A DNA stretch of 64,000 nucleotides from a virus: positions 1 to 64,000 of IMG/VR virus record IMGVR_UViG_3300021378_000014. The stretch is one strand, 5' to 3'. Below are positions 1 through 59,073 of this stretch, piece after piece. Within the stretch, counting starts at the first letter, position 1. Every line of letters starts with the position of its first letter. The notes below the pieces were generated by a model, which saw only the letters and a program-made list of their open reading frames with translations, did not search any database and had not been told where the DNA came from. Both the position numbers and the translations under genes were made by a program.

Positions 1-2
1 CT

Positions 3-3000
3 GTAGGTATTGATTCTGTAATGCAAAAGCTAATAGAAAAAGCTAGAGCCGCTGAACGTATTTATAATAAATATAACAACCGAGTAATTAAACCTGGTGT
101 TAGTGAAGAAGTTGTAGCAAGGCAACGAGCTTTGCAGATGGATGCTGAATTTAATTTAGATACACAACGTGATGAATTAACTAAAGCTGAATTAGAAGTT
201 GAACGTTTAATGCCAAATATGAGCATTACTACTTCTTTCTTTAGAGAAAGTGTTCAATTAAAAGCTAATCGTGAAGCTAAAGCTATTTTAGAAACAGCAC
301 TTACAAATAAAAATACTACAGATAAAGCTAAAGCTTCTATTGTTAAGCAAATTCAATTGCTTAAAGAAAATAATGAAGCATTAGCGGCTAGTTTAGATGC
401 TGTAAATCCTGGATTAGATAAAAGAGCTTTAACTGGCTCTGAACCTGATCAAGAATTATTAGATACAGCTACTGATGTAGTATTACGTAAAGCCATTATT
501 GCTCAAATTAGTGATAACTTACTTGATCTTTCTTTACCTAAGACTACCGAAGAAATTGCTACTTCTCTAGCTGAAGAAAAGGAACGTAAAACTAAAGAAG
601 CTTATACTCAATTTACTACAGAAGTAAATAATCCAACTACAACTTCTGCTAAGTTAGAATCTATGCTTAGCACTTTAGAATCTACTGATCCTAATTTTGA
701 TAAAAAATCTAAAGTTCTTACAAAACGGATTAAAGATACTAAACGTCAAGAAGCTATAGCTGAAACAGCAAAACGCAAGGCAGAAATTGCTGAAGCTGAA
801 AGATTAAAAAGTACAGAAGCTGCACCTGTAGCTGTAACTCCGGTTGCGGCAACAACTGCCCCAGCAATAACAGTAACTTCTGTAACTACTACAGAACCTG
901 AAGTTGAATCTGCAACTCAAAGTGAAGAGATAACTACTGAAAAACTAGTTGAAGAGCTTGGTACATTAAAAGCAAAACAAGTTCTTGAAGCTATTGAGAA
1001 TGTAAAGTATATGCTCGGAGAAAGTGGAGCTTTACTAGTTACTGAACTACGTAAACTAGCTAAAAAAGCTAAGAAATCTCTTGGTGATCTTGCGGCAGCT
1101 TATCTTAATCAAGAAGCAGATAAACTTGATCCGTCTATTGTTAAAACAGAACTTGTACCTGAAACTGTAGAAGATAGTACAGAAATTAATGCAGTAAAAG
1201 ATAATACAAATGAATTTACCGGAACAGAAACTTTACCAGAAACTTCAGAACCTGTTGTATCAACTATTGTTGAAGAGGTTCAAGGAAAAGAAACAGAAAC
1301 AGAAATTACCAAAGAGGAAGAGGTAGCAACTAAACCTACTCGTACAAGAGTATATAGTGTTATAGCTACCCCTTTTATTGGGGAGTTTAGTGCTAAAAAA
1401 ATTGAAGGATTAATTGGCACTAAGCTATTTGAAGGTGATGTTATTAATACAAGTTATGATAATGGACGTAATAACGGAACTCGTACTTTAATTACTTTTA
1501 TCGTTAAAGATGGTAAGTTAACAGCTAAAGGTTTACCTGCATTTAGTGTATCTAAATCTCGTCGTAGATTTGGTGCATTAGTTGTAAATGAAGATTTACG
1601 TCCAGCGCCTGTAGTTGAAGCACCGACAGTGACTGAAATTCCTGCAGTACCTGAACCTGCGCCTATTGTAGTTGAAGAAACTATTGTAATTGATAACACA
1701 AACTACGGTTCTGCTAATATTTTTGTTCAACCTCTGGCAAAAGGTTTAATTCAAAAAGGAGATACGTACAAAGCTAGTGAAGAAGCAGTAACTGTTATTG
1801 ATGTAGTAAAAGCTATGCAAGTTGGTGATGATATTACATTAGAAGTTGATACTAGTAATGAATATCATAAAGATAATGAAGATAACGCAGCTATAGTAAT
1901 TAAAAAAGATGGAATTGTAATCGGTATGTTAAATATTATTGATTCAATTCAAACTGCTATTAAAAATACGGAGGATCCGGCTGCTGCTAAAATCTTTATG
2001 ACTAACTTAGAAGCTACTCGTAAACTTAGATCAGTAGTTTGGAATAATGGTAATCCAGTTGTAGTATCTACTAAAGTAACTAAACTTACTAGTGGTACTT
2101 TAATTAAAGGTGAAACTTTCATTCCAGTACAAGATAGTTTAGTTGGAGAGTTTGAATTGTATTATGCTGATGATGGTGTAGCTGAAAATGTAGTAATTGA
2201 TCAGCTTATCTCTATTACTGGGAAAGATACTTATGTTAGAACAGGAAACAAAGATTTTCATAATTCAGATTTACAATATACACCTGGTGTATTTTATGCT
2301 TTAATTGCTGGATTAAATGATAATACTGGTTTTAATTCTAAAGAAGAAGTTCAAAATAAAGTAGTAGTAAGATTACGTGTAGCTAATTTAGGTACAAAAG
2401 AACAAAATACTTTATACGGTACTATTGGTAAAGTAATTGAACTAATGCGATCTGGTGAAATTGATTTCAATAAAAATGAAAATTTAAATCAGTTACGTAC
2501 AGCTATTGGTGATATTACAGCTTTTAATAAAAATAATGATAATACTGATGGTACAGTTACTAAGCCATATTTCAAAATACATAAACAGTATATTGAATTT
2601 TTAGCTTACGGTGATACTAAACTGGTACGTATTTATTTTAATAAAGGTAAAGCTAGTTCTACTGTTGTAGTTCATCCTTTTGATAGCAATGCTGGTGATT
2701 ATAATACCTGGGCCGGATTCCGAAAAATGGTAGGCGCAAAGGAATTAGAGGCAAATTTTGACCAGCAAACCGGCGAGAAAGCGCGTGAGATTGTTTTAGC
2801 GGCTTTAGCTACTAAACAGCACCAAATATCTTTGGCAAAGATTAAAAGCGGCCAGATCAGCGCAAAACAATTAATGGACGAAAAGAAGTTGCTGGCTGAT
2901 GTTGGAAAAGTAGTTGATTCTAAAGGTAAAGGTGTTACTAATTTTGTACCTAAAGAGAATAGAGAAAAAACTAGTAACTTAGTTATTAGTGTTGCTTCTG

Positions 3001-6000
3001 GAATTAATGATGGTACAAATACGCAGGTTAAAACCGCTTTCCCAGTAATAGAGAAGGCGAAGCCTGCAAAAAAACCAACTACACAACCCGCTGCTGAAGA
3101 TGATGATATTGCTGCATTACGTAAGTTTATGGAAGATAATCCTACTGAAACTGACGAACGTTATGATGCACTTACTATGCAAGTAGTTGGTCCTATTGCT
3201 ACAGAAGTTTCAGTTTCTATTGAAGAACGTACAGCTAATTGGGAACGTATGTTTGGTAAAAACGTACCATTTGATCCTAATGTTGATGGACTTATTCGAT
3301 ATAAAGGTAAACTTGCTTATGGTTTATTTTCACAAGCTGCCGTTCAATTAAGTAAATTTGCACCAGTTGGCGCTGAAGCCCACGAAGCTTTTCACGTAGC
3401 TATGCACATTTATCTTAGTGAAGAAGCTAGGACTAAAATATACGCAGAAGCTAAAGCTAAATATGGAGATTTAACTGAACGCCAACTTGAAGAATTACTT
3501 GCTGAAGATTTTAGATTATTTGCTATAACTAATAAAACCAAACAAACAGGTATTATTCGTACATTTTTTAATAGACTTAAAGCGTTTATTGAAAATATAC
3601 TTGGTAAATATTCTACTGATCGTTTATTTAATGAAATTAACAGTGGTTATTTTAATTATGCACCTACCGCTAAATCATTAGAATACGCACGTAAAATTGG
3701 TATGACTATGGAAGCTACTCCAGAAGATATTTACGGAGCTGCTAACTTAGATCAATATGTTAATTACATGACAGGAATTGTTAACCAGTGGATTGGTGAA
3801 CATCCTAATGTAACAATGAAAGAAAGAAGTAATAATAACGATTTAAATATTCGTTTAGTAACTAAAGATCAATTAAAGTTGCATTTAGGTACTTTATTAA
3901 ATGAATTAGATACTGTTACAGATAAAAATCGTTTAGCTTCTATTATTCAAGCTGGTAAAATTATTAAATCTTTAATTCTAGATTTAGATACTAAAGATAG
4001 TGCTCTATGGGCTAAAGTTGTAGATAATGCTGATCGCTTGCTTAATTTACGTATTGAAGAAGAAGTTGAATTTGAAGGTAACAATAAACTCAATAAAGAT
4101 TGGGATGATAGACTTGCTTATTCTCGCTCTAGTAAAGAATCATTTGACTTTGATTTGAAACGTATCATTATGGCTACAAGAGCTGTAGATGAATATACTC
4201 AAACTGAAGATGGTATGATGTATACTTATAAACAAGAGAATGCAGCTTTACTTCCTACTTTTATTAATTTCGATTATGTCTATGGTCATTTAGCTAGTCA
4301 AATGGCTAATGCTAGAGATGTAGAAGAAATGATGGCTAGACTTGCTAATATGGCTCAAGCTGATCCTAGCTTTATGTTATTGTGGGAGCGTATTACCGGT
4401 AATCCTTTATTTCAAGCTAAGTGGTTTAGTAACTTTAATAAAACATTTATTGAAGCTGACCATCATCGTATTGTAAGTACAGATGTTGGATTGCGAGTGA
4501 CTAAATCTATTAGTAATAAACGTTACACTTTAGCTGATAACTGGCTTTCTACTATTAATGCTTTAGTATTTGAAAGTAATAAACATGATAATAGTTTTTT
4601 TAATAGTACTTTTAAAATTAAAGTTACTAAACTATTAGAAGAAACTACTGCTTTGTTTAGAAATGCTGAAAGTACGCCACTTGAAATTGCAACGAGTTTA
4701 TCTAAATTAGCTAATGAAATTGGTATTGATTTGCCTGCTGATATTATCTTAAAAATTGGAGATAATCAAGCTTTAGCTGATGGTAAAACTTGGCAAGAAA
4801 CTGTTAATACTTTAATAAATAAACCTTTAAGTATTATTATGCGAGGATTTACTCGTACTATTGATACGGGTAATCCTATTAAATTTGAAAACAGAGGTAG
4901 ATTGAATGAATTAGCTGCTGTTACTAACTTCTTTATTTTTGATTCTACAGAGAACAGTTATTTTGGAGTTGATGGTAATATGCGTTTTAGTCTTAGCAAA
5001 CCATCTTTTATTACGGATTGGTTTGATGATATTAATCAACTTTTAAATCCCTTTACTGTACTTAAAAAGAAAGCTAAATTAAGAGTTCTTCGTAAGTTTC
5101 AAGCTTATGCTCAAGATCCTAGCTTTCAAGCAAGTAATTGGTTATGGAGTACTAAAAACAAACCGGGTATATTTAATGTACCTCATACTACAAATGTAAT
5201 GTCTTTAACTGTAGATAATTTGAATATGAATTTTATCTCTAACTTTAGTTTTACTAAAGATGATGGATTAAAAAACATAAACAAACGTAAAGGTGCTGGT
5301 TATGATGCTCAATCTACACAAGATTGGGATATTAGTAACTTATTGAAATACTTTACTGGTCGTAACAGTAGTATGGCTACTTATCCGATTGTAGTTCAAT
5401 CTGATAGTGGAAATATGTGGAATATTACTAGTACTCGTATCTCAATTTATGAAAATGGAGTTCCTGCTGTTGATGAAAAAGGTAATATTAGTAATACAAG
5501 TAAACTTTACCAAGCTTTATTTAATACTATTAATCAAGAATTAATACGTATGAAGCAAGCTAGAGAATTACTGTTTACAGTTGATCCTGTTACTCAAGAA
5601 CTTAAAGTTAAAGAGGGTATTGAATATGGCGCATTACAAGTTAGATATCATTATCAGAAATTAGATGAAAATGGTGTTCCTATTCTTTTAGTTGACGGTA
5701 AACCTACAGGTAGAGTATTTAGATTTGATAACATGACGTTTGCTGATAATACAGGTAAACTTCAAACGTTAAATAATCGAGGTATTACATATAACGGTAT
5801 GTACCGAGCTGAAGCTCATACTCAAGAAACTACTCAGATTATTGATAAGTTTATTAGAGAATTTGTTAAAAGTCAAGTTATTGCGGGTAATGCTAAATAT
5901 AAAGGATACAAAGAAGTATTAGCTAATTCAAAAGATAATTTTGGTAGTACAATATTAGGTCTTTATAATGATGTGGGTAAAGTAACGGCTTATCAATCTG

Positions 6001-9000
6001 CTATTACTGAACTTATGTTAAATACTTATCTTACTTACGTAGAACATGGTAATTTCATTAATGGAAATATCAGTGAATACAAAGATAATAAAGATACTAA
6101 TAAACGAGCAAAACAAAGTAGTAGTCCTCGTCAAATTCTTAGTACCATTTTTAGAGGTAAAACTTATAAAGGTATTACGTTTGCTGATATTGAAATTACT
6201 AGTTCATTTTATGATGGAATGGTAGAAAATGTAGCAAAACAATTAATAGCTAAAGGTGGATATGACGGATTGAGTTACGATGCAGCTAAAATGCGTAAGA
6301 AAACTCTTCCTGATAATTCTAATACTTTAGAAAAAGATATTCATTTTATTACTAGTGGATATTTATCTATTAATCGTGCCGATGCTCAATCGTATAATAC
6401 AATTGATCGTTATAAAGCTACAATGCAAGATGCTGGACGTTGGAATAATGTATCTGAAGCTGCGTTTCTTAAAATAAAAGTTGGTGAAGATTTAACTGCA
6501 TCTGAATTAAAAGGTTTTTTACAAGTTATTAAACCTTTTTATTACGATAATGTTTATGATTCTCGTATTGGTAAAATGAGAAGTCGTCAATTAAAGAATA
6601 GTATTTTACCATTGATACCTCAACTTGTTAAAGGTACAGCAATGGCTAAAGTACTAGCTGCAATGGAAACCGCAGGTATTGAAGAAGCTTATTTTCAATC
6701 TGCTACTAAAGTAGGTATGGGCTTTATCAATAAAATTACAGATGATCTTGGTAATCTTACTGAAGGCTTTGATGCTAATCTAGTTACTGAAACTTATTTT
6801 AATGCTCATTGGGGTTTACAGCTAGATGTACCTAGTCACTTAAAAGATCAAGAAAATAAACTAGGTGTACAAGTTAGTAAGATTCTTATAGCTAATTTAA
6901 GTAACGATGCTATTTATCAATACAAAGGTTCTTCTATTACTGGGAAAGAACTTCGAGAAAAATACTTTGATTTACTTAGTGCTAATATTGAAGATTCTGC
7001 TCGTAGTTTACTTAAACGTATTGGAGCAAAACAAGTTAATGGCACTTGGACAATTGAAGATTTAACTAAAATTCAAGAAGTACTTGTTAGTGAACTTGAA
7101 AGTAGAGGATTAAGTAAAAATTACACTGAAGCTTTAGAATTTGTAACTGATAGTTTAACAGGAGAAAAAGTATTTAATCTTCCGTTATTTGTTAGTAATA
7201 TGAGTACTAAATTTGAAAGTGTACTTACTAGTTTATTTACTAATAATGTAACTAATCAAAAATTTCCTGGAGGTCACGTTGTACTTGCTAGTGACGCTTT
7301 AATTACGCAGTATGATAATGTTATTAAACCTACCACAAAAGAACCTACTGTTGGAGATATTGTAACTATTGATTATTATTTTGCTGGGCAAGATAAACTA
7401 GTTCCAGTTAAAGCTAAAATAAACAAGCTTGAAAAGTATTATCAAGGAAAAAGTAGAACAACATTACCAAATGGAGAAGTTATAGAAAATCCAGGAACTC
7501 TTGAGTATTATGTAGAATTAACAAATGTAAATAACAATAAAGTTTATAAAGTAACAGTAGATACTTCTGGAATTATAGAACAAACTCATGGTAAAGGTAT
7601 ATTTATAGGAGGAGACAATTATATTAAAGAATTTGATATTAAGAATAGCATTTCTGAAAAAAATACAATCAACGCTACTGGAATTAATTTCCGTAATGAA
7701 GTTATGGATAGAGTAGTTGATGGTACTTTTAGACTTAATCCGCCTATTCTTGAAAATGGTAGAATTGTAGAAGCTGAAGCTTTACTTCCTGCTTGGAGTA
7801 AAAAATTCTTTGATGAAGAAGGTAATCGTATTGATATTAATGATTTACCAGAAGAATTACTGGTAATGATTGGTTATCGTATTCCTACTGAAGCTAAATA
7901 CTCTGTACCTGTAATTAAAGTTGTAGGATTTTTACCGGAAGGTCATGACAGTACAATTGTATTACCTTATGAACTTATTACACAAACTGGATGGGATTTT
8001 GACGTTGATAGTTTTTATATTATGCAACGTAGTTTTGAAGGTAGTGTAGCAGAAGGATTTAAATTAGTTACTGATGAATCTACAAGAGCTGGAAGAAATA
8101 ACGCTATATTTGATATTTATATGGCTATTCTTACTAATCCTTATCATTATGTAGAGAATATAAATCCTGGTAAGTTTACTGATCCTGTAGCTTTAAAGAA
8201 ACGACAAGAGTTTCTTACTGGTGTAGCTGTTGATGACATTAATCCTAATACACGTGATGGTCAAGATTTCTTTAGAAATACTAACATTGCAGGTCGAGCA
8301 CTTAAAGGTTTAGCTGCAAACTCAAATGGTATTTTACCAGTACTTCAAAATATAGAAGCTGAGTTTGGACAAGGTTTTACTTTTACTATGGCTTATGATT
8401 TAAGTAAATACAGTGAACAAGAGTTACGCGATAAATACGGAGAAGATGTTATTATTGAAGGTACTACAGCAATAGTTACACACCGTAAAATTGGCCATTC
8501 TCCTGATGGTAGTTTTACTAATATTAATGGAGATGTTACTACAGATCACGCAGCTCAAATGCTAGCTATGATTCTTGATATTGTTAAAGAAGGTTTACCG
8601 TATAATATCAATACTTATACGTTTGATACTTTTATGGCTATGCTGACTACAGGAATTGATATTAATCATGCTGGTATGTTTATGCGTCAACCCATCATTA
8701 ATAGTTTAGCTGAATTTAAATTAAACAGTGATGGTATTCTTGCTAATAGTACTACTAGACCTATGGAATATATGCGTCGTGATTATCAAACACGACTGTA
8801 TAAGTTAATGGTTATGGAAGGTATTATCAGTAAAGAAGATGCAGTTAAACGTGGACTTGCTATTAATAACGAGAATGGTTTCTACTTTAAAAAGAATAAA
8901 ACTATTTGGCTTACTCATAAAAATAATGATGAAACTAAGTTAGCTAGTGCTGTTTTAGGATTCGATTCTCGTGATACTAAAACTTGGACATTACGTGAAC

Positions 9001-11105: not shown

Positions 11106-14100
11106 ATGGCAAGTACTTGTAAATATATAGCTCCTAATGGGGAACCTAGTAAATTGTATGATGGACTAGTTAAGAAATATGGTGCTGAAACTGCGTTAAA
11201 AACTTGGTTAAACGTAACCGTTAACTTTCCCAGTAATAGAGAATACTCTAGAGATACTAATGGAGAAATAACTATTAAAGAAGTAATAAAACAAGGTTTA
11301 GTAATACCATCCTTTTCTATTACTGGGAAAGATGAAAAGCTTAATTATCATACAAATAAAGCTAATGAACTAAAGTCTGTTTTTGCTGCATCTGGTATTA
11401 ATGTAGAAGTTGTAGTTGATTTAAATGCAAAACAAGCCGGAGCGTTTCTGGCTGTTGATGGTAAACCTACTATAACTATAAATCCTAATTTAGCTAAAGA
11501 TGATACTGTTTTTCACGAGTTTGGTCATATTTATGTTGACTTACTAGGAATGGACGATCCTTTAATTCAAAAAGGTATTGAACAATTAAAGTACACGGAG
11601 CTTTGGAATAAAGTTGCTACTTTATATCCTGATTTAAGTGAAGTTGCTTTAGCAAAAGAAGTATTAACCACTGCTATTGGTATTGAAGCGTCTAAACTTA
11701 AAGGTGTAGATCAATCTAGGTGGACATTATGGATTAATAGTTTATTTAGAAAAATAAGTGAATTACTTGGTATTGAAATTTTTGCAGCTAAACTATTAGC
11801 TCGACAACTTATTACTGGTAATCTTGGTGATAATCTTAATGGTAAATATGAACTTCATGTTCAGTATCAAAAAGATTTAGATTTAGTAAATGATAAATTT
11901 CTTGATAAATTTCAAGTAGTAGAAAAAGCTTTAGGTGTTATTAAGAAAAAGATTTCTACGTTTTATCGTAATATTAAACAAGAAGAAAGAGAGAAAGATA
12001 CTAACTATGTAGCTTTAAAAGAGCTTGAAGAAGCTTTAGTTGAACATACTAATACTGATGTAGAACTAGGTATTGTTGCTTTTATTTCTCAAGCGTTACT
12101 ACAAACTGGTAAGCTTGAACAACGGATTGATCGAATTATTAATCCTACTGTTGAAGATAAAGCTAACGGTAAAGATAAAATTACAGCAGCTGATTTACGT
12201 AAGCTGATGAAATATAATAGTACTTTTGCTTTAGCTAATGATTTAATTGATTTAACTACAACAGATCAAGAATTAAAACAAGCATTAATAGATGCAGGAG
12301 TATATACACATTTGTTACTTATTCAGCAACGACACGATAAAGTTAAAAATAGCGCAACTCGTGTAGCTATTACATTAATTAGTCAAAAGTTTGCAGGTAA
12401 AGGTAATGCTAAAGTTACAGCTATTCGTAGGCAAGAATTAGAACAAGAATATGATTCTCTTCATCGTGAAGAACGTAAAGCTGCTAGACAAAAAGATAGA
12501 AAGTTATTTAGCGATAAAGAAAAACAAGAGTACAGTCAAAAACGTAAGCGTTGGATTGATAGTATGATTGGTATGGAAACTAGCGCTATAGCTTTAAAAA
12601 CTGTTGAACGTTTTAAATATATACTTCAACAAACTAATCAAGATATTGCTTGGACAGATCGTATGTTTATTGACGGTGATGCTATAAACGATGAAATTAT
12701 TCAAGTAGTTATGGAATTATTAGACGCTGCTGATTTTAAAACAATGACAGCTACTAATAAAGAATATGACAAATTGAATGAATTATTTGAACGTTATAGT
12801 AAAGCGCATACTAGTGGAACTCAAACTATAAAATATGATCCATTAATTGAAAATGAAGTTGAACTACGTGATGGTAAATTAGTAGAAACTGGACGTAAAA
12901 CTAAGTATATGGTTAGTGAATATTATAGTGCGTTTCTTGTAGCAAAAAATGCTGCATGGGATGCATATAATAGTGAAGCTAAACGTTATGGTGAAGATAG
13001 TGATCAAGCTCAACTAGCTTTACAAGAAGCTAAAGATTGGGCCAGAGCAAATGAAGTAATTATGCCTGATGGTAGTATATTACCAGTAGGTAAATGGCGT
13101 AATCCTCAGTTTAAAACTATAAGTCAAGATACTACTGTAACTAAAGAAATGTATGATTATTTAATTAATCGTATAGAAGAGGATGATCGTAATGTTCCTT
13201 ATTGGGCTAAACTTACTGATGAAGTTAATGGACATAAATGGTTTAAATTACCATCTGTTAAAAAGAAAGGACTTGAGCGTATTTATGAGAATGGTTTATT
13301 TGATACTATTAAAGATAACGTTAAAAATGTAATTTCACGTGATCGTGAAGATAGTACTGAATTTGGTGGAGATAATGTAGCAGAGTCAGTAAGCGGTATT
13401 GTAAATCGTACTATATCTGTATTAACAGATGAAGAAGGTAACGAAAAGCACGATATTCCTATCAACTTTAGATATGATATTGCAGAAGCTGATCAATCTT
13501 ACGATTTACCTAGTTTAATGCTTCTTAATTATAGTATGGTACGTAATTATGAAAATAAACAAGAACTACAAGCTGATATTGAACTTACTCGTGAATTAGT
13601 AAAGGAACGTAAAGTTGTAAAACAATCAGCTGGATTTCTTAAAGGAGCGTTAACTAAAATTGATGTATTACTAGATACAGGTTTAACTAACTCTAAACCA
13701 ATTACTACTGAAGGTATTGATAGTAATAGCTATAAAGCTCTTGAATCTATAATCGAAGATCGTTTATACGGACTTGCTAGTAGAAGTAGTGTAAGAGCAA
13801 ATAAGATAGCAAGTAAACTAGCTACGTATACAGGTAGTGTATTACTTATTGGTAACTATTTAAGTAGTGGGGCTAACTTAACTGCTGGTATTACTTTTAA
13901 TTGGATGGGTAGACTGGGCGGTACGTATTATACTGCTAACGATATTACTCAAGCTAGTATTAAATACGGAGCTGATTTAGTAGGTATAGTAAACGACTTT
14001 GGTAAAATTAGATATTCAAGTAAAACTAATCTATTAATGGAAAAGTTTAATGCTTTATCTGATTGGAGTGCTGTTGCTAAGAAATTTTCAGATGATAATA

Positions 14101-16072: not shown

Positions 16073-16119
16073 GCTAGTTTTGTATTTGTATCTTACCCAT
16101 TCTCTATTATTGGGAAAGA

Positions 16120-16718: not shown

Positions 16719-17621
16719 TTACAAAACTTTCCCAGTAATAGAAATACGCTCCCTCTCAAGAATCATTCGTAGTTCTGTAATTAAATTATCAATAGTACTA
16801 TTATTTTCAATAACATAATTCCAATCATTATAATTATCTAATTCAAGTTCAGATATATGATTAGGTATAGTATCTTCTTTTACTGTTCTATTTACTCTAA
16901 TAAGTAAACCATTGTGTTTAATAGCTTCTACTTCATTAAGAAATCGAACATCAGTAATAATCCAATTAGGAAAACCTAATGATTTATAACTAGGGCGAGG
17001 ATCATGAAACATACCGATACCCCCAGATATAAACTTTTCTTTGTATTTATTCATTAAAGCATTTACCCATATATTAGGATGTATGATATTTCTACCTGCT
17101 TCTGTACCTATAAGTTGCATTAAAAGTCTAGGTGTAAGTATTCTTGTTTGTATACCAACACCTTCTGCATCTTTTCCCCATAAATAGGTATCGCTTAACT
17201 TAGGAAAATTATAAGTCATAGCTTCCTCTTTACTACTAAAATAAGGACTAATTCTACCATCACTATTATTAGTAATAAGTTTATAATGGGTATAATACCA
17301 CACTATCCATTCTTTTCCAATGGGTGTTTCTTTAAATCTACTATCTTCTAAATCTTCGCGAGTGCAATCAATTAACAAACAAACTATATCTTTAAGTTTA
17401 TCTGCAAATTTTTTAATTACAAAACTAGAATTTCCATACCTAGCTCCAACGCCAAATAATAACCAATCTTCATATCCAGCTTTTGTATACGCTGCTACAC
17501 CAAAATCTACTTCCCAAGTGGGTTGTGTTTTAAGTATATCTTGTTGTACAAGAATATACTGAATAATATTACCAATAGTATCTTTACCACTGCCGGCTTT
17601 ACCGCTTATTCCAATTATCAT
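16719..17621 (-). CDS. Deoxynucleoside monophosphate kinase (T4 gp1-like)
   Basis: IIGISGKAGSGKDT P-loop, FADKLK, TPRLLMQLIGTE, ITDVRFLNE, HISELELD. Confidence 0.9.
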   Translation of the reverse strand: MIIGISGKAGSGKDTIGNIIQYILVQQDILKTQPTWEVDFGVAAYTKAGYEDWLLFGVGARYGNSSFVIKKFADKLKDIVCLLIDCTREDLEDSRFKETPIGKEWIVWYYTHYKLITNNSDGRISPYFSSKEEAMTYNFPKLSDTYLWGKDAEGVGIQTRILTPRLLMQLIGTEAGRNIIHPNIWVNALMNKYKEKFISGGIGMFHDPRPSYKSLGFPNWIITDVRFLNEVEAIKHNGLLIRVNRTVKEDTIPNHISELELDNYNDWNYVIENNSTIDNLITELRMILERERISITGKVL

Positions 17622-40539: not shown

Positions 40540-40615
40540 CGAGGTATATTTCTATTACTGGGAAAGATTAAGGCAGTCCTAACTTCTTTCCCAGTAATAA
40601 GAAAGGGCTGCTTAG

Positions 40616-41681: not shown

Positions 41682-41730
41682 GTAATTGTTTGTGTTATAA
41701 CTTATAGGTTATAACGGATTAATAAATTAG

Positions 41731-41899: not shown

Positions 41900-41933
41900 C
41901 CCAGTACCGTAGGTACAGAACTTTAATTAATAG

Positions 41934-42017
41934 TACCGGGAAAGGGACTTGAACCCTCAATTCCAGATGGAAACAGGATTTTAAGTCCTGCGTGTCTACC
42001 AATTTCACCACCCCGGT
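41934..42017 (-). tRNA. trnL: tRNA-Leu(UAA)
   Basis: ACCGGGGTGGTGAAATTGGTAGACACGCAGGACTTAAAATCCTG...GAGGGTTCAAGTCCCTTTCCCGGTA; long variable arm; CCA not encoded. Confidence 0.93.
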
Positions 42018-44732: not shown

Positions 44733-45380
44733 CTACGGATTTACTTCTTCCAAATCTAGCTCTTCAGCAGGCACTTCTACTTTACTAGCAGATGGTACAT
44801 TAGATGTAGTCATCATGCTAACAAACATCTGTGTTGCTGCATTCTCGGTCATACGGCCAAGTTTACCTGCAACTTCAGCAGACGGAATGTAAGTAAAGCC
44901 AGTAATTGAAAGAAAAGTGCTGGTATAAGTACCAGTAACTTTACGGCCAGCTTTCTTTCCAGTATACGTTTCACCTTCGATATTAAGTTTAACATCAAGA
45001 GTAAATCGACCTTGGTCAATCGCGCCAGTTGTTGCAATACCCATGTGCGAAAAATTAGCGAAACGTGCATTTTTAGCTACAACATCGGCACGTCCAGGTG
45101 CTAACAAAATAGTGTCATGCTTTTCGCCGACGCACAAGCCACGAGCAAAGGTTTCATCCATATCATCAGGATCAATACCAATAGATACACGTGGCGCACC
45201 ATTTACCATATTAGGTATAATGCCTAATGTAGTAATGCCTACTGTTACTTGTGCAATACCAGTTGGATTGTCAATACGAAACTGCTTTATGTAAGCAGCC
45301 AACGCTGCTGCATAAGTTGCAGCATCTTCATCACTTAAAGCCGCTACTTGGGCTTTAGTAAGAAATTGAAATGTGTTCAT
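44733..45380 (-). CDS. Hypothetical early protein with acidic tail
   Basis: 215 aa, ends EELDLEEVNP. Confidence 0.75.
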   Translation of the reverse strand: MNTFQFLTKAQVAALSDEDAATYAAALAAYIKQFRIDNPTGIAQVTVGITTLGIIPNMVNGAPRVSIGIDPDDMDETFARGLCVGEKHDTILLAPGRADVVAKNARFANFSHMGIATTGAIDQGRFTLDVKLNIEGETYTGKKAGRKVTGTYTSTFLSITGFTYIPSAEVAGKLGRMTENAATQMFVSMMTTSNVPSASKVEVPAEELDLEEVNP

Positions 45381-45457
45381 ACTAAAAGTGTTTAAAGGTT
45401 AAAAAGAATATGTCAAGTATTAGTAGGTGGTTTACGATTAAGGTTACGTCTAAACAG

Positions 45458-45487
45458 AGGAATATTACTATTGCTAGTAATATTCCT
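45458..45487. other. Perfect 13-bp inverted repeat
   Basis: AGGAATATTACTA-TTGC-TAGTAATATTCCT. Confidence 0.8.
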
Positions 45488-45492
45488 TACTG

Positions 45493-45705
45493 TTAGAACT
45501 GTTGTACGTCAGTTAAGAGGCTCGCGCATACTTCAAATATAGCAATGCTATTAGTTATATAAACTAATACAGCAATACCAGATTTAAATTCAGAATGTAC
45601 TCTTTGGTTTAGTATTCTAACCGTTGTACCTCTAGCATAATGAGTACCGAGGGGTTTAGTACTAGTTCTGCAAGGTACAATATCGGCAGCTAGGTATCTG
45701 CGCAT
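45493..45705 (-). CDS. Hypothetical protein, first gene of the leftward block
   Basis: 70-aa ORF. Confidence 0.5.
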   Translation of the reverse strand: MRRYLAADIVPCRTSTKPLGTHYARGTTVRILNQRVHSEFKSGIAVLVYITNSIAIFEVCASLLTDVQQF

Positions 45706-46543
45706 TTTTTGTGAGAATTGCGGCTGTTTTTACCAACCAGATTGAAAATAAGGCACCTAAGAGCTGTTTTGAGCGACTTGAGGCAAGGGCTAAGGTATTA
45801 ATACCTGTTAGCGTTCCGTGTCAGCACAACAGCACAAAGGTGCCCATTTGAAATGAAAATCGCAATCTCGATGCCTATTAGTATAGATGATCGAGATTTA
45901 ACGACTAATAGTAAACAATCAAGCATTGTATTAATACAATACTTGTTAGAATTTAAAATAGAGTGAAGTATCTAAGCATTTGTGAATCTAGTGATAGATT
46001 ACAACTACTTAGAATTAATAATAATAAGATGTAGATCACCATTGCCAGGGCAAGGATCAAGACATTTCTACATATTAATTCCCCAAAAAACTTTTGTTAA
46101 AGTTGCTATAGGGGATACTTCAACTCCAAACATTAGTAGGGGGTTGATGTTATGGTGGGTCACGACCCCTCTGTTAAAACATAACCCAAAAATTTTAAAC
46201 ATAATTTTTTAAAATCAAATTATAACTAATCTTTAACTTACTGTTAAAACTTCCCTTAAAAAATATACTATAAAAATTTTTAAAACTAATTTCTAACTTA
46301 ATTTTTTACTTATAGTTAAACCTACTGTTAAAACATAACCTAATAATCTTACAACTAGTCCAACTATTAATATTCCACATATACCTCCAAACATCACCAA
46401 ACATACCCTTATTATATAACGTTATATAACGTTACAACAAGTCTTAACTTATCTTTTACTCACGATATTCTTACTATATCTTATAATGTGTATATTTACA
46501 TAGAAAATAATCTACAATTAATTTTACAACTAAAAACTAAACA
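45706..46543. other. Divergent non-coding region; candidate genome-terminus junction or origin
   Basis: Strand switch; G-poor AT-rich tract; CTGTTAAAAC x3 (46171, 46241, 46325); tandem TTATATAACG at 46412-46434; several palindromes. Confidence 0.55.
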
Positions 46544-47272: not shown

Positions 47273-47965
47273 ATGAAACTATTTAAAGTTGATGTACTAC
47301 AAGGAACAATAGAGTTCCTGGAGAATGAGTTTGGGGCCATACGAGAATTTAAAGCGGTAATGTCAAAACTGCGAAAGGTACAAGGCGACTCACAAGGTCG
47401 GTACAAGTTGCAGAACAAACGAGAACTACTATATATATTCTTTATGGCCGACTGGACTGGAGCTAATCCTTATCATAGTTTAACTGAAGTAGAACGGCAT
47501 CATAAAGCTGTTGAGGCTGCTGGGTTAGAACGTGGTTATGTTCCTGATGAGATAGTTCTTGATGCTTGTAATAAGTATATTGAACTACAGCAAGAAATGT
47601 CACCTACTACTAAGATTCTTGTTTCTCTTAAACGTAATATGCAACAAAGTAGTAATTACTTTGAAGGACTTGCTGAAGAGAATGAAAAACTTATTAATGT
47701 TAAGAAAAGTTTAACTCTTGAATTAGGAGGACAAACTGATGCAACATTATTAGAAAGTATTAGTGAGATTAATAAGATGTTACAAAGTAATATCTCTGCT
47801 GCTCAAAAATTTACAGTTAGTCTTGAACAAGCTATTGAAAAAATAGATAAACTTCAAGATAAAGCTAGATTTGAAATGACTAATAGCCGTCGGATAACTG
47901 GCGGTGGTGATTTGAACAATAGAGAACTTCCCAGTAATAGAGAAGATATTTCGGGTAATAGATAA
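47273..47965 (+). CDS. Coiled-coil protein, possible small terminase subunit
   Basis: Small N-terminal domain (RELLYIFFMADW..NPY) plus two long helices; upstream of TerL. Confidence 0.5.
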   Translation: MKLFKVDVLQGTIEFLENEFGAIREFKAVMSKLRKVQGDSQGRYKLQNKRELLYIFFMADWTGANPYHSLTEVERHHKAVEAAGLERGYVPDEIVLDACNKYIELQQEMSPTTKILVSLKRNMQQSSNYFEGLAEENEKLINVKKSLTLELGGQTDATLLESISEINKMLQSNISAAQKFTVSLEQAIEKIDKLQDKARFEMTNSRRITGGGDLNNRELPSNREDISGNR

Positions 47966-48041
47966 TGATACTAACCAGTAATATTCCTATTACTGGGAAA
48001 GATTTCTTAACTTTAATTATTAATTAATTAAATTAGAACTC

Positions 48042-48221: not shown

Positions 48222-49274
48222 ATGACAATGCAACAACGTACTATTACGTTTGATCCTGGACCGCATACTTATACTGATGAAACTGGTGCTCCTTATATTA
48301 GTGTTACTACTTTAATTGGTAGTGTAGAGCCTGAGTATCCTGCAAGATTTTGGGCTATGTATAGAGCTGTAGATCAAGTAGGTATATATAAGCCTAGACC
48401 TTTTTTAGAACATGATAGTATCGAAGTTACATTTAGAGGTAAAAGGATTAAATTTGGATTAGATGCTCTTTACAACGGAGTTATACCGTTAAACAAATCA
48501 GCAGCTAGTATTAATGCTGAATGGGAAGAAGAAAAAGATTTAGCTTGTGAATGGGGTACTAATAAACATGATTACCTTGAAGGTTGTATTAATAAATTTG
48601 CTACCACAAATTATGTAAATGTACACGAGATATACGAACGTAGTAACTCTTTAGGTTTTGCTTATAAAGTTACTAATATGGAAGAGCTGGAAGCTAGTCC
48701 ATTACGTTTAATGTATCCTACTATTTATGAGCAAATTGCTCGTTATATTAAAGCTGGATGGATAGCGTATGCAGAGAAACGTATATATTCTAGTATTCAT
48801 AAAGTAGCCGGAACAATTGATTTATTATTAGTTAAAAATGGTAAGTTTCTTATTATTGATTGGAAAACCAATAAAGATAAGTTAACTTGGGAAGCTGGTT
48901 ATTATAAGAAAGAGTGGAACGCTGATCGTAGCCGTAAAGTTAAAACTAGTGAGTTTATTAAACGTAACGATTGTTTTCTTTTTCCATTAAATAAACTACC
49001 ATTATGTAAAGGTAATATTTACACACTTCAACTTTCACTATATACTTATATATGTGAACTATGGGGATTAAAAAGTGTAGGTACTTTACTTTGTCATATA
49101 CGACCACATCTATCTAACGATGGAGAAGTGCTGTATGAAGCTGATGGTATTACTCGTAAAGAACATGAACCTGAATTTTATAAGATTGCTTATAAGAAAG
49201 CTGAGGTTGCCCGGTTATTATCTTGGCGATTAGGCGAAATACACCGTTTTCAGCAACCTGAATTTAGTATCTGA
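48222..49274 (+). CDS. PD-(D/E)xK nuclease
   Basis: YISVTTLI, GTNKH, AEKRIY, AGTIDLL, IIDWKTNK, YTLQLSLY. Confidence 0.88.
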   Translation: MTMQQRTITFDPGPHTYTDETGAPYISVTTLIGSVEPEYPARFWAMYRAVDQVGIYKPRPFLEHDSIEVTFRGKRIKFGLDALYNGVIPLNKSAASINAEWEEEKDLACEWGTNKHDYLEGCINKFATTNYVNVHEIYERSNSLGFAYKVTNMEELEASPLRLMYPTIYEQIARYIKAGWIAYAEKRIYSSIHKVAGTIDLLLVKNGKFLIIDWKTNKDKLTWEAGYYKKEWNADRSRKVKTSEFIKRNDCFLFPLNKLPLCKGNIYTLQLSLYTYICELWGLKSVGTLLCHIRPHLSNDGEVLYEADGITRKEHEPEFYKIAYKKAEVARLLSWRLGEIHRFQQPEFSI

Positions 49275-49449: not shown

Positions 49450-51765
49450 ATGAATCCTTTTAGTACTACGCTTGAAGAAGAGAAAGCGAATAATAATCCA
49501 GCACATTCTTTTAGGTGGGTAGCTAATAACTTTGAAAAGACTGGGCTTTATCGTACTGAAGATATTACTTTTGCTAATACCGATATAATTAAAGAAGCAA
49601 GTAGGCATTTTCAAAAATACGGTATTTACAATGATATTGATCCTAAAACTGATCCTATTGCTTTTTCGAGGTGGTGGGATAGATGGGAATATCGACGTAA
49701 ACATGGAATGGTAGTTAATTGTAAATTAGATAAATCTGGAGGTAATTCAGATAAAGATTTGCAACCTCTTTGGATTCCTGGTAAAATGGTAGGTCTTATG
49801 AATTTCGGACCCATTCTTCGTACTGCTGATCCTGATGATCTAACTATATTAGATGCTAATACTGCTACGTTAGATCAACGTAAAAGACTAGGGATTGATG
49901 AAGAAATGGAACAACTATTTAGTAAAATCAAAGTAAACGAAACTGCTGATATTACACATGACTTTATGGATTTCTGGGATGGTCACTTTCATTATTGGGT
50001 TGCTCAAGATTTTAGTGAACGTATTGGATTAGATATGGTTGTAGTTAAAGCCCGACGTAAAGGTTTTAGTTATATAGGTGCGTGGGATGCTTGGGATGAA
50101 GTTTACATGAATCCTTTTATTAGTATCTTTTTAGTAGCTTATGATATGAAATATCTTACAGCTTCTGGTGGTCTTTTTTCGTTAGTTCAACAGTATTTTA
50201 ACTTTGAACAAAAATATACAGACTGGCGTAAACGTACACTTAGTAAAACTAAAGATCATATTAAGTTTGGATTTACATTTACTGGCGATCAAGAAGAGTA
50301 TGGTTTCCTAAGTAGTATTACTTGTTTTTCTGCTATGGATAATCCAGATTGTTTACGTGGTAAAATGGCTAAAAAGATTAAATGGGAAGAAACAGGTACG
50401 TTTCCTAATCTACAACAGACAAGAGAAATTGCATATTCGGCTGCTGAAGCTGGGGGATACAAACTTGGACATAGCACTTATTGGGGTACTGCTGGTAGTA
50501 AAGATGGAGATTATGGTCCACTTCGTAGTGCTTTTTATAAACCTATTAGTTTTGAAGCTTTACCGTTTGATAATATTTGGGATATTAATAAAGAAGGTAC
50601 AGAAGCTGCTTTATTCTTTGGTCAACTTCAAAATCTAGTTTATGATAAAGATGGTAATACAGATATAGAAGCCGGTAAACAATTCCATTTACGTAAAACA
50701 GAAAGAGCACGTAATAGTAAAACTGCTAGTCAATTCCAGCAATGGTCTGCTGAAAGAGCTACTACTCCTGCTGAAGCTTTGAACAGACAAGGTGATAATA
50801 TCTTTTCTGCTTTAGCGGGCAGACTACAAATGCAAGTTGATCGTTTAGATATAGACCCTGTACTTAAATCAATTGGTCGTTGTGGAAGATTAGAAGAAAC
50901 AACTAGTGGTATTCGTTTAATTACAAACGAAGAATTAAAACTACAAGGTAAACCTTATCATCTACCAATTAATGATACACCTGAAGCTTTAAGTAGAGAT
51001 ATGGATATGCATGGTTGTGTAGTTGAATGGTTTAGTCCACATACTATATCTTATGTTGATCCTCATGATCCATTCTCTTTTACTGGGAAAGTAAATTCAG
51101 TTGTACCCAAAGGATTATACTATATTTGGCATGATCCGTATGCAACTGATAAAGATAGTACTCAAATTACTATTAAAGATTCTCTTGGTGTTGCTTATGT
51201 ATACGAAAAAGCAAACGGATTTACTCCGAGTAAAGGTGATCGTATAGTAGCTAGTTGGATTGGTAGACCTGATACAACTGATGGTTATAACTCTCAACTT
51301 TTACTTTTATGTAAGTATTATAATACAATAGATGGTTTACTTTTTGAGAATGACCGAGGTGATGTTTATCCTTATTTTAAACATCATAAAGCTTTACGTT
51401 ATTTAATGGAAGAACCTGAAATGTTAACACTTAAAGAACTTAGTGGTAAGACAGGTAGAAATTATGGTTTATCTATTGGTAAAAACTTTAGACGTAAAGC
51501 GGAAGGTGCTCGTATGCTTAAAGATATGCTTAGTTCAGTATTTAGTAAAAATCAAGAAACTAATATTGAAACTACGTTTATAGAGTATATATACTGTAAA
51601 CGTTTATTGAAAGAGTTATTACGATGGAATAAAGATGGTAACTTTGATTGTGTTTCTGCTTGTATTGTAGGTCAATTTATGATTAGAGAAATAGAAGAAA
51701 GAGAAACAGAAACTGAAGATACATTTAAAGAAGTAGATGATTTCTTTACGCGTGCTCATTTTTAA
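49450..51765 (+). CDS. terL: Terminase large subunit
   Basis: KARRKGFSY Walker A, WEETG Walker B, WGTAG, and nuclease motifs WHDPY, FENDRG, GNFDCVSA. Confidence 0.93.
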   Translation: MNPFSTTLEEEKANNNPAHSFRWVANNFEKTGLYRTEDITFANTDIIKEASRHFQKYGIYNDIDPKTDPIAFSRWWDRWEYRRKHGMVVNCKLDKSGGNSDKDLQPLWIPGKMVGLMNFGPILRTADPDDLTILDANTATLDQRKRLGIDEEMEQLFSKIKVNETADITHDFMDFWDGHFHYWVAQDFSERIGLDMVVVKARRKGFSYIGAWDAWDEVYMNPFISIFLVAYDMKYLTASGGLFSLVQQYFNFEQKYTDWRKRTLSKTKDHIKFGFTFTGDQEEYGFLSSITCFSAMDNPDCLRGKMAKKIKWEETGTFPNLQQTREIAYSAAEAGGYKLGHSTYWGTAGSKDGDYGPLRSAFYKPISFEALPFDNIWDINKEGTEAALFFGQLQNLVYDKDGNTDIEAGKQFHLRKTERARNSKTASQFQQWSAERATTPAEALNRQGDNIFSALAGRLQMQVDRLDIDPVLKSIGRCGRLEETTSGIRLITNEELKLQGKPYHLPINDTPEALSRDMDMHGCVVEWFSPHTISYVDPHDPFSFTGKVNSVVPKGLYYIWHDPYATDKDSTQITIKDSLGVAYVYEKANGFTPSKGDRIVASWIGRPDTTDGYNSQLLLLCKYYNTIDGLLFENDRGDVYPYFKHHKALRYLMEEPEMLTLKELSGKTGRNYGLSIGKNFRRKAEGARMLKDMLSSVFSKNQETNIETTFIEYIYCKRLLKELLRWNKDGNFDCVSACIVGQFMIREIEERETETEDTFKEVDDFFTRAHF

Positions 51766-57010: not shown

Positions 57011-57055
57011 GTAACTAAATAATCTATAAATTAATATAAAATAAAGATTAACAAT

Positions 57056-58012: not shown

Positions 58013-59073
58013 TGACTATACAAGAAATGCACATCGACTTTCAGTTAAAACTGCAAGAAGTGTATGCTTATACTTTTGGTGATTTTACTAAAGAAGAAAT
58101 TGATTGGGTATTAAATGAACATATGTTTAAGTTTATTGAGTATCGTTCTGATCCTAAAAGTAATAGAAAACAAGAAGGATTTGAAAGTACTCAAAAACGT
58201 TATGACGATATTGAAAGTTTAATAACTACAACCTCTCTCCCAGTAATAGAGAATGTGGGGTATGTAAGTGCATTTCTTCCTAGTAATTATTTTAAACTAG
58301 TTAGTGAAAGACCTGTAGTGTCTTGTTCTCCTAAAGTTATTGTAGAACAATCATTATCAAGTTTAGGAATTAATTTAATTAATTCAACTCAAACATCTGT
58401 AGCTACTTATCAACTTACAATTAGTACTAATGGTGATAGTTTTTTATTGTTTGATAAAGCCGATTATACAACAAAAGTTTTAGGACAAAGTGAAATTCCT
58501 TTTTTAACGGCTTTAGTTATAAATAAACTAAGTAGTTATAAACCAGGTCAGCTTATAGCTGCTTGGGAATCTATTGGGGATTTTCACACCCCTAATAAAA
58601 CTGCTGTTGTTGGTTATTATGATAATATAACTATCACCATTACTAGTACTAATAGTACTGGTAATACGTTTACGACAACCTTTACTTTTTCAGCTACTAC
58701 TATTAATAAAGCACAAGTTGCTAATGATAGTAAAGAGGTTGATGCAAGGTTACTTAATCATGAGTTTCTTCATCGTCTATTAGGTAATTATTTTAGTAGA
58801 ACTAGACCTGATTCGCCAGTGTGTGTAATAGAAGATGGTATAATTAAGGTTTACTATTCAAATTTTAGCGTTAGTAGTGTTAATATAACTTATGTTAAAT
58901 CTCCTAGATTAATGAGTAATTCTTTAAGTATAGATTGCGAATTAGGAAGTAGAACTGGTCAACGTTACAATATTTGTAGACAGATTGTAGATGCTGCTGT
59001 AGCGAGTGTTGCTGGTAGAATTTCTGCTGGTAACACTCCTATTTTAACTGAAAATTTTTTAATAACTGAATAA
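58012..59073 (+). CDS. Head-tail connector/ring-type protein
   Basis: MTIQEMH...EIDWVLN...EGFESTQKR...YVKSP...IVDAAV; crAss gene order. Confidence 0.7.
   Translation: MTIQEMHIDFQLKLQEVYAYTFGDFTKEEIDWVLNEHMFKFIEYRSDPKSNRKQEGFESTQKRYDDIESLITTTSLPVIENVGYVSAFLPSNYFKLVSERPVVSCSPKVIVEQSLSSLGINLINSTQTSVATYQLTISTNGDSFLLFDKADYTTKVLGQSEIPFLTALVINKLSSYKPGQLIAAWESIGDFHTPNKTAVVGYYDNITITITSTNSTGNTFTTTFTFSATTINKAQVANDSKEVDARLLNHEFLHRLLGNYFSRTRPDSPVCVIEDGIIKVYYSNFSVSSVNITYVKSPRLMSNSLSIDCELGSRTGQRYNICRQIVDAAVASVAGRISAGNTPILTENFLITE

Follow-up and report, generated by a model that had tools for sequence, protein, structure and literature searches.

The question raised by this locus is what a DNA word of ~20 bp does when it recurs throughout a phage genome, on both strands and mostly inside genes. 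The window is the stretch of 64,000 nucleotides that forms positions 1-64,000 of IMG/VR record IMGVR_UViG_3300021378_000014, and the whole genome (G000) comprises 81.4 kb. The word is asymmetric. A CT-rich tract is followed by TAC, one further base, a run of G and then purines, and conservation extends over ~20 positions (-8 to +11 relative to TTAC), which exceeds the 14-bp core of the original prediction. A sequence search of the 64-kb window gives 17 exact TWTTACTGGGARAG, against a mean of 0.01 and a maximum of 1 in dinucleotide shuffles, and 3 near copies. The 17 exact core matches agree in number and position with those first reported. Both near matches given with them (16100 and 47927) are real, with one mismatch (16103-16118, plus strand) and two mismatches (47926-41, minus strand) to the 16-mer, and when they are included the split of 10 plus and 9 minus holds. 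The weak copy placed at ~62461 is CCCTCTCTACTGGGAAAT, at about 62460-62479 on the plus strand. The proposed search of the rest of the genome adds four copies between 64 and 81.4 kb (68916-, 69502+, 74173- and 75579+), and the entire genome carries 24, 13 plus and 11 minus, a density of ~one per 3.4 kb. The copies in the window are as follows.

2207-2226, plus strand: word copy in the vRNAP gene, sense (SITGK)
3037-3056, minus strand: word copy in the vRNAP gene, antisense (FPVIE), 824 bp from its opposite-strand partner at 2207
6929-6948, plus strand: word copy in the vRNAP gene, sense
11225-11244, minus strand: antisense word copy in the 1351-aa gene that follows vRNAP, at its N-terminus, divergent with 11312 (93 bp)
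11312-11331, plus strand: word copy in the same 1351-aa gene, sense
16099-16118, plus strand: near copy TCTATTATTGGGAAAG, one mismatch, intergenic
16727-16746, minus strand: sense word copy in the dNMP kinase gene, at its C-terminus
24585-24604, plus strand: word copy in a 286-aa replication-module gene, antisense (LPVIEK)
24815-24834, minus strand: word copy in the same 286-aa gene, sense, paired with 24585 (224 bp)
30193-30212, minus strand: word copy in the DnaB-like helicase gene, sense
34415-34434, plus strand: antisense word copy within the gene for family A DNA polymerase
36826-36845, minus strand: sense word copy within the cell-wall hydrolase gene, read in the third frame as LLLGK
40547-40566, plus strand: intergenic word copy, left arm of a hairpin-capable convergent pair
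40586-40605, minus strand: intergenic word copy, right arm of the pair with 40547, ~630 bp upstream of a weak RepL-like ORF
47926-47945, minus strand: near copy, two mismatches, at the end of a 230-aa gene
47982-48001, plus strand: intergenic word copy upstream of the PD-(D/E)XK exonuclease gene, divergent with 47926 (62 bp)
51072-51091, plus strand: sense word copy within TerL, whose loop at this place exceeds that of relatives G002 and G003 by 7 aa
54603-54622, plus strand: word copy in a 402-aa gene between the portal and MCP genes, sense
58235-58254, minus strand: word copy in a 353-aa structural gene, antisense
62460-62479, plus strand: variant copy CTCTACTGGGAAAT, sense

Most copies lie in coding sequence (20 of 24 inside ORFs; ORF fraction of the genome 0.95), with 11 sense, 8 antisense and 4 intergenic, and five reading frames are used in all. 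The encoded peptides are as originally listed, SITGK/SFTGK in 10 of the 11 sense copies and LLLGK in one, with five FPVIE-type and three FPSNR-type readings among the antisense copies. The codons said to be forced by the word are indeed rare, GGG accounting for 6.3% of Gly codons and CCC for 4.8% of Pro codons, and 10 of the genome's 97 GGG codons are found inside word copies. After synonymous-codon shuffling the 17 genic copies fall to 0.19. Across the genome, synonymous-codon or codon-order shuffling leaves the 3 untouched intergenic copies and ~0.2 new ones, as against 20 observed 14-mers. These codon-preserving shuffles, which the original prediction had put forward as a check, give chance counts far below those observed and bear out its claim that selection acts on the DNA rather than on the proteins. 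Orientation is also unlinked to gene direction, as had been claimed, and this rules out ordinary promoters and ribosome-binding sites. The possibility of an assembly artefact is excluded, as contigs from independent sea, fresh-water and estuary samples span the sites and a JGI contig 98.8% identical to the window retains sites 47926, 47988 and 51078 unchanged. The word is a cis-acting DNA signal of ~20 nt that is maintained by selection independently of genes. Within the proteins the copies occupy variable loops, and most of them substitute residues without a change in length. The TerL copy, which coincides with a 7-codon insertion, is the sole insertion-like copy, and an insertion origin of the copies was rejected.

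The two DNA strands bear separate regular arrays, each with a copy per ~3-10 kb. The word recurs ~every 6-7 kb on each strand, essential genes included, and no same-strand gap is shorter than 3.1 kb or longer than 10.7 kb. The coefficient of variation (CV) of the spacing is 0.32 for the plus strand (P<5e-5) and 0.30 for the minus strand (P=1.5e-4). Spacing in crAssphage is regular too (CV 0.43, P=0.001 on one strand; CV 0.31, P<5e-5 on the other). In seven genomes all neighbouring pairs closer than 1.5 kb (29 of 29) are on opposite strands, and no genome contains a same-strand pair closer than 2.0 kb; the two orientations are therefore not interchangeable. The tight opposite-strand pairs are mostly divergent. 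The 40547/40586 pair has a calculated single-strand DNA fold of -16 kcal/mol (z -5.7), and two partial word copies lie between 47926 and 47982. A hairpin within a single word was considered and rejected, positions -5 and +9 being without covariation on inspection. The seven copies of G010 alternate between strands without exception along the record. The counts are 10 plus and 9 minus in G003 and 13 plus and 18 minus in crAssphage, and the only strand-skewed genome is G001, with 14 plus and 7 minus. Very probably the word is recognised, on one strand or in one direction, by a factor that the phage encodes.

The word is not confined to this genome but is one dialect of a clade-wide signal. A whole clade within the crAss-like phages, prototype crAssphage among them, keeps lineage-specific dialects. 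Those of relatives include TACAGGGA, CTACCGGC and TACAGGCG, often at orthologous positions, and coincidence of position across genomes within 100 nt is observed 14 times where 5.5 are expected (P=0.004). G001 and G003 use TA(C/T)AGGGAG(A), the cultured phage crAss002 carries 14 copies of YYYYACGGGG, and prototype crAssphage (BK010471.1) shows the same grammar, per-strand regularity and opposite-strand pairs. TAC (YAC in crAssphage) and GG are invariant in all dialects and the flanks vary. The CT-rich tract with YAC and a G run, the regular strands, the opposite-only close pairs and the dialects in relatives all hold for the word.

Several copies can be matched individually. G003 has a word pair at the place equivalent to the 11225/11312 pair, and its orthologue of the 286-aa replication-module gene has a copy in the same alignment column as 24585. 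G001 has a copy in the same TerL loop as 51072 and another at the same position as 58235 on the other strand, and copies in G002 and G010 map within ~100 nt of the 54603 position. The word CTACAGGAG of G007 (7 copies) and weak words in G005, G008 and G009 were not counted as dialects, their flanks being unconserved. The word is absent from phi14:2 and from five further relatives. In a TerL, portal and MCP tree the word-bearing genomes all fall into a single clade, and capsid proteins are only ~31% identical between lineages that share the word grammar. The closest relatives in Logan/ENA assemblies have MCPs 60-74% identical, and no close relative was found among GenBank phages (MCP identity <=35%). 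A TerL metagenome scan returned one near-identical strain, the remainder being distant relatives. No description of the word was found in papers on crAss-like phages, consistent with the initial failure to recognise it as a described Crassvirales element.

Three genes are present only in word-bearing genomes among the 11 genomes compared.

28578-29402, minus strand: RecT-like gene, a weak PHROG match, 29% identical to crAssphage RecT gp18
37519-39051, minus strand: Dda-like SF1 helicase gene
48222-49274, plus strand: gene for a PD-(D/E)XK-type exonuclease, in the late region and immediately 5' of TerL

Because of this restriction the exonuclease is a candidate reader of the word or partner of its reader, by association. 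The association of word and genes is confounded by descent, since the word-bearing genomes form one clade, and independent gains of the word and the three genes were rejected for the same reason. The replication module contains Toprim, DnaB-like, family A polymerase (an 839-aa ORF) and ATP-dependent ligase genes, and the genome also has vRNAP and cargo genes. The Toprim protein is 36-38% identical in relatives that have no word at all. A search of the ESM Atlas with two uncharacterised replication proteins gave nothing usable, and the sole Rfam match is a tRNA.

The function proposed here, tentatively, is to signal where a strand starts, by way of a nick or at a primer site. Each copy would mark the start of a new DNA strand of that polarity, and the tight, mostly divergent opposite-strand pairs would be two-way start points. 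The setting would be multi-fork, recombination-dependent replication. Counted in favour are the enrichment, the DNA-level selection, the per-strand regularity, the opposite-strand pairs and the invariant TAC and GG, together with the position of copies in variable loops and at orthologous places, the replication-module genes and the three word-linked genes. Gene-independence, one-base dialects and similar positions, all shared with nick motifs (PMC3517423, PMC11780129), also count towards it. Against it are counted the word-less relatives that keep Toprim (36-38% identity) and the link between word and genes that is confounded by a single clade.

Either route to a strand start is, taken singly, doubtful. 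A primer might begin at the invariant AC, the complement of 5'-GTA, on the model of the T7 5'-GTC and T4 5'-GTT sites with their pppAC-starting primers. The G run would provide a stable primer-template hybrid in a genome of 32% G+C, which would explain why the sites are written in and not left to chance. Known primases, however, need just 3-5 nt and not ~20, and a spacing of 6-7 kb would imply long Okazaki fragments. The other route would be a site-specific nick leaving a 3'-OH, but opposite-strand nicks 28-100 bp apart would produce fragile sites, and known phage nick motifs are confined to one strand and spread unevenly (PMC3517423, PMC11780129).

An unlikely alternative to the strand-start signal is a phage-private, Chi-like 'self' mark read by the phage's SF1 helicase, PD-(D/E)XK nuclease and RecT. 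These enzymes would track from DNA ends until a correctly oriented word switched degradation to recombination, so that host or rival DNA lacking the word was destroyed and phage DNA escaped. Such a mark would be needed in both orientations, and the strands are indeed regularly covered with opposite-strand pairs common; the density of ~one per 3.4 kb also resembles that of Chi in E. coli. Across 11 genomes the word and the helicase, nuclease and RecT-like genes are always present or absent together, although this is a single-clade event and the exonuclease gene adjoins TerL among the late genes. Chance would not place a 20-nt word in a host genome, and rapid dialect change would fit a contest among related phages; that the word is a self mark whose dialects diverge through competition between related crAss-like phages is itself unlikely. 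Known Chi sites, however, are 5-8 nt and host-read, whereas ~20 positions are conserved here, and we know of no biochemical precedent for reading of Chi by a phage-encoded enzyme. Chi-like sites were among the original candidates, but reading by host enzymes seems a poor fit on the evidence of five Bacteroidota genomes, in which the core 8-mer occurs once per ~29-56 kb (1.2-2.7x control), as against once per 3.3 kb in the phage. In IMG/VR, and among the 120 stretches listed for GTDB, which come from scattered taxa, exact 16-mers give single matches per contig, as chance would predict.

Binding sites for a dsDNA genome-organising or regulatory protein, such as a stoperator, P1 C1 operator or matS-like site, are improbable. 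L5 stoperators and P1 C1 operators are likewise dispersed and asymmetric, and the tight pairs could hold a dimer. If orientation were irrelevant, however, a second copy 30-1400 bp away would add nothing and direct pairs should make up half of the close ones, whereas 29 of 29 are inverted. Orientation is independent of transcription, and ~20 near-invariant positions exceed the typical need. The orientation-blind parS/matS-like site that had been suggested fits poorly with an asymmetric word, per-strand arrays and close pairs that are all on opposite strands; the word is no palindrome, and its arms are without covariation on inspection. Near the hairpin pair there is a weak RepL-like ORF of the winged-helix type, and both RepL genes of crAssphage are ~270-550 bp downstream of a tight pair. 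Nevertheless, RepL does not track the word, as Pfam RepL was not detected in G001, G003, G010 and G011 and is present in word-less G012, which speaks against the earlier suggestion of a RepL-like protein as the reader.

Less probable still are promoters or start sites for the phage's own RNA polymerase (virion RNAP), which would give transcripts or primers both ways and might, for example, engage the DNA wherever a permuted genome enters the cell. The word is ~20 bp, asymmetric and near-invariant per genome, with a lineage-specific upstream part and GG at a fixed place as in T7-type promoters, and the vRNAP and cargo genes are present. The TA(C/T)AGGGAG(A) of G001 and G003 is one base from the T7/T3 start-region consensus. 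On the other hand, 8 of the 19 genic copies are antisense, 20 of 24 copies are inside ORFs, and a scan of large ORFs gave no T7-like RNAP gene. Moreover, phi14:2 has a vRNAP without the word; no common motif was found upstream of its vRNAP transcripts, and its promoters of the middle class resemble those of sigma70 (10.1101/2020.03.07.982082).

It is very unlikely that the copies are recombinase/invertase target sites or were left by a small mobile element: within-genome copies are nearly identical, the TerL copy coincides with its insertion and the inverted-only close pairs recall shufflons, but most copies replace residues with length unchanged, no recombinase or Y1 transposase was found in the genome, no contig joints occur at the sites in four runs, and regular spacing and conserved positions are unexpected for insertions. 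Reading by an HUH/Y1 enzyme, or as a REP/RAYT or IS200-IS605 target, was rejected because PF01797 (Y1/HUH transposase) is absent from G000, G001, G003, G011 and crAssphage.

Essential genes accommodate the word by accepting rare codons and altered loops, and it is in register on each strand and has a grammar shared across lineages; it is therefore a strong sign of an undescribed, essential strand-reading step in phage DNA handling. In the human gut the crAss-like phages rank among the most abundant viruses, and in water they are common too. To our knowledge, their replication, recombination and DNA packaging are largely uncharacterised. The question is directly testable because the cultured crAss002, which has Bacteroides xylanisolvens as its host, carries the word. 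Should a nickase, site-specific primase or Chi-like switch prove to be the reader, its enzyme specificity of ~20 nt would be new, and the dialects offer a practical marker for sorting crAss-like lineages.

In comparison with the word of the gut phages crAssphage and crAss002, the grammar, per-strand regularity and opposite-strand pairs are alike, whereas the dialect of this genome is AT-richer and has one extra base between TAC and the G run; its lineage is aquatic and has a family A polymerase instead of family B. Primers start with pppAC at the T7 (5'-GTC) and T4 (5'-GTT) primase sites. The TAC of the word corresponds to 5'-GTA on the template strand, so that a primer would similarly start with AC, such sites are also needed on both strands, and the G run after TAC recalls the strong T7 sites GGGTC and TGGTC. 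The resemblance to 5'-GTN sites is one of sequence only, TAC/YAC being invariant in every dialect. Primase sites differ in being 3-5 nt and very frequent, as against ~20 nt every 6-7 kb per strand, and the likeness is limited by relatives that have a similar Toprim protein without the word.

The T7, T3 and SP6 promoters are also ~20 bp, asymmetric and near-identical per genome, with GG(G)AG at the 3' end and an upstream part that diverges between lineages. They are, however, gene-directed, mostly intergenic and matched by a cognate RNAP gene, whereas the word is intragenic in either sense (11 sense, 8 antisense). L5 stoperators and P1 C1 operators are 13-17-bp asymmetric sites, tens per phage genome with some inverted pairs, but they serve a temperate-phage repressor and are tied to transcription direction or overlap promoters, which the word is not and does not. 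Chi (RecBCD/AddAB) is similarly direction-specific, has a few-kb density and is useful both ways, and the word is accompanied by helicase, nuclease and annealase genes. Chi is 5-8 nt, host-read and host-enriched, whereas the word is ~20 nt, phage-lineage-specific and unenriched in five Bacteroidota genomes. Nick-associated motifs are described for T5, phiKMV-like phages, tf/LUZ24-like phages (TACTRTGMC) and Rembedalsseter (WACTRTGAC) (PMC3517423, PMC11780129). These are uneven, 7-19 nt and on one strand, whereas the word is regular, paired and on both strands (13/11 here, 10/9 in G003, 13/18 in crAssphage). Like the word they are short, contain TAC, are dispersed independently of genes and mostly in coding sequence, and show one-base dialects at similar places in relatives (PMC3517423, PMC11780129), a dispersal and conservation of place that the word matches with 20 of 24 copies in ORFs and a positional coincidence of P=0.004.

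The word is an asymmetric site of ~20 bp, made up of a CT-rich tract, TAC, one base, a run of G and purines. Its core, TWTTACTGGGARAG, has 17 matches in the window against 0.01 expected, which bears out the count of the original prediction; the near copies that had been placed at 16100 and 47927, and the weak one at ~62461, were found at 16103(+), 47926(-) and ~62460(+). The final 17 kb of the genome adds four further copies, and a position table of 22 copies gives ~20 informative positions in the form (C)(W)TYTCTATTACTGGGAAAG. The sites are spanned by contigs from three separate DNA runs and by one JGI contig, so that an assembly or adapter artefact, considered earlier as a refutation, is ruled out. 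The 23 copies are divided between 11 in sense, 8 in antisense and 4 intergenic, and the genic ones use all five stop-free frames. When synonymous codons were shuffled gene by gene, keeping every protein unchanged, the genic copies fell from 17 to ~0.2. Word copies supply 10 of the 97 GGG codons of the genome, and in orthologue alignments they occupy variable loops with the residues usually replaced; the copy in the terminase (TerL) is the exception, coinciding with a 7-residue insertion. Given the loss on shuffling, the mixed senses and frames, the GGG use and the loop positions, selection acts on the DNA, as had been proposed.

The densest word-like sequence in the genome is the 47926-47982 cluster, where two partial copies, TCTATTACCCGAAAT and ATATTACTGGTT (minus strand), lie at 47946-47981, inside the pair formed by the copies at 47926 and 47982; L238, a JGI contig of a near-identical strain, has a 2-bp deletion within 47946-47981. 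The RNA run X16, a fresh-water metatranscriptome with contigs of this phage (window 34000-53999), includes a 9-kb contig covering TerL and the portal. One X16 contig starts at 47963, 25 nt ahead of the word at 47988, this being a strandless assembled-contig edge and not a mapped RNA end.

Each strand carries its own regular array. Gaps between plus-strand copies are 3.1-9.8 kb (CV of same-strand spacing 0.32) and between minus-strand copies 3.8-10.7 kb (CV 0.30), a per-strand regularity reached in <2/10,000 trials of random placement. Opposite-strand copies are often close (33, 62, 93, 224, 587, 624 and 824 bp). In seven genomes (this virus, G000; its relatives G001, G002, G003, G010 and G011; and crAssphage) all 29 neighbouring pairs <1.5 kb apart are opposite-strand and the closest same-strand pair is at least 2.0 kb apart. 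One orientation thus cannot stand in for the other, which favours a reader specific to strand or direction over a simple double-strand binding site. Fold prediction allows the intergenic pair at 40547-40605 a hairpin with a 14-bp stem (-16 kcal/mol, z -5.7).

The window (G+C 32%) is the first 64 kb of a single-contig record of 81,416 bp. Judged by its genes G000 is a divergent crAss-like phage, with a giant virion RNA polymerase (vRNAP) ORF, Pfam matches to the crAss muzzle protein, ring proteins 1 and 2 and the crAss-type major capsid protein (MCP), and a portal ~25% identical to gut crAss portals. Near-identical DNA was found in sea-water, fresh-water and estuary runs from 18 studies. The vRNAP ORF is truncated by the contig start (window 1-21) and the upstream cargo ORF by the contig end (79368-81416); with no direct join between the two frames, this is probably an assembly that is permuted or falls just short of closure. 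A small-ORF region at the divergent junction (45713-46420 and 44991-45497) is a strain-level mosaic, showing dense substitutions and indels against L238, with one segment 75% identical and flanks ~99%. A sole tRNA gene was noted:

41933-42017, minus strand, tRNA-Leu(TAA)

Summed contig depth is highest at this gene (up to 439x in run X2, 41337-42003) and many loose contig ends lie at ~41974-42016; tRNA contigs of other organisms have therefore been placed there.

Relatives were found via MCP and TerL alignments and their whole genomes then used. Several of them carry the word as lineage-specific spellings, or dialects, and no such word was found in G005-G009, G012 or Cellulophaga phage phi14:2.

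Dialects in relatives, with identity to G000 and copies (reversed-pattern control in brackets)
G001, MCP 53%: CT-rich tract + TA(C/T)AGGGA; TAC[AT]GGGA core, 20 copies (1)
G003, MCP 50%: CT-rich tract + TACAGGGA; 20 copies (2)
G002, half genome, MCP 52%: word as G003; 10 copies (4)
G010, TerL 38%: CAGGCTTTCYYCTT-CTACCGGC-RA; 7 copies (0), strands strictly alternating
G011, TerL 34%: RCAAYTTTAG-TACAGGCG-A; 14 copies (0)

G001 has a second spelling behind the same CT-rich tract, TATAGGGAG (7 copies vs 0.36 expected, e.g. 19506, 43546, 60314 and 68936), which matches the start region of T7-type promoters exactly. Copies from different genomes share an orthologous position within 100 nt in 14 cases vs 5.5 by chance (P=0.004), and within 200 nt in 25 vs 10.7. 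At these shared spots the strand often differs between genomes, which points to reuse of permissive loops besides inheritance.

The prototype gut crAssphage (BK010471.1) contains 31 copies of CCATCCTC(T/C)ACGGGG(A/G)GT, 13 plus and 18 minus, with per-strand CVs of 0.43 (P=0.001) and 0.31 (P<5e-5) and 7/7 close pairs opposite-strand; in cultured crAss002, YYYYACGGGG occurs 14 times vs 0 for the control. The dialects share one grammar, namely CT-rich tract, YAC, 0-1 base, GG. In a TerL, portal and MCP tree the word-bearing genomes form one clade, with G012, G005-G009 and phi14:2 apart, and from this placement the signal is old and inherited.

By tblastn against five other complete word-bearing genomes and five word-less ones, four G000 genes have homologues in 5/5 and 0/5, respectively:

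37519-39051, Dda-like SF1 helicase
48222-49274, PD-(D/E)XK exonuclease, just upstream of TerL
28578-29402, RecT-like gene
upstream of vRNAP, one cargo gene

Toprim, DnaB-like, SNF2 and polymerase genes do not separate the two groups, being present in each. Because the word-bearing genomes are one clade, the association is a lead and not independent evidence. In crAssphage (gp83) and crAss002 (gp4) the exonuclease gene likewise precedes the terminase gene closely, the distance being within 0.2-2 kb across the three phages, and in the gut phages a few small ORFs intervene; the arrangement recalls packaging-assisting nucleases. RepL does not track the word among genomes, although a RepL-like protein had been named in the original prediction as a candidate to bind it. 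G000 and crAssphage nevertheless each have a tight word pair some hundreds of bases ahead of a gene for RepL or a RepL-like protein. The weak RepL-like ORF of G000 (39462-39926, minus strand; 20.0 bits vs cut-off 20.3) is ~630 bp from the hairpin pair, and the crAssphage RepL genes (28718-29272 and 96138-96794) are ~270-550 bp downstream of tight divergent pairs at 28077/28174 and 95745/95866. In a published prediction, one origin is placed directly upstream of the first-position repL gene (PMC10983915).

What the data require is a reader able to tell the strands apart and in need of a site every few kb on each of them. The top-ranked reading, held tentatively, is that a strand would start at the word, by nick or by primer. 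A Chi-like mark read by the phage would account for the dialects, for the length of the word and for its link with the helicase, nuclease and RecT genes, but has no known biochemical precedent and seems unlikely; in the genomes sampled, a host repeat or a host Chi fits the word poorly. A double-strand binding site, against which the strand rule of the close pairs stands, is more doubtful still, and a promoter for a phage RNA polymerase slightly more so. The word differs from the sigma70-like middle promoter of phi14:2 and relatives, and the early transcripts of the vRNAP likewise yielded no motif (10.1101/2020.03.07.982082). A mobile element or recombinase site is very improbable, and the remaining probability goes to readings outside this list. 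An HUH-transposase target was rejected for the word, and to the extent that contig joints can tell, it is not part of an inversion system. No description of the word strings or the phenomenon was found in the literature searched.

For a strand start at the word, the invariant TAC corresponds to template 5'-GTA, parallel to GTC in T7 and GTT in T4 primase sites, at which primers begin AC. The 20-nt length and the Toprim gene of word-less relatives count against the primer. The nearest precedent is that of published nick motifs, which are gene-independent, show one-base dialects and occupy similar positions in relatives (PMC3517423, PMC11780129). These motifs lie on a single strand with an uneven spread, whereas the word is found on both strands in regular arrays.
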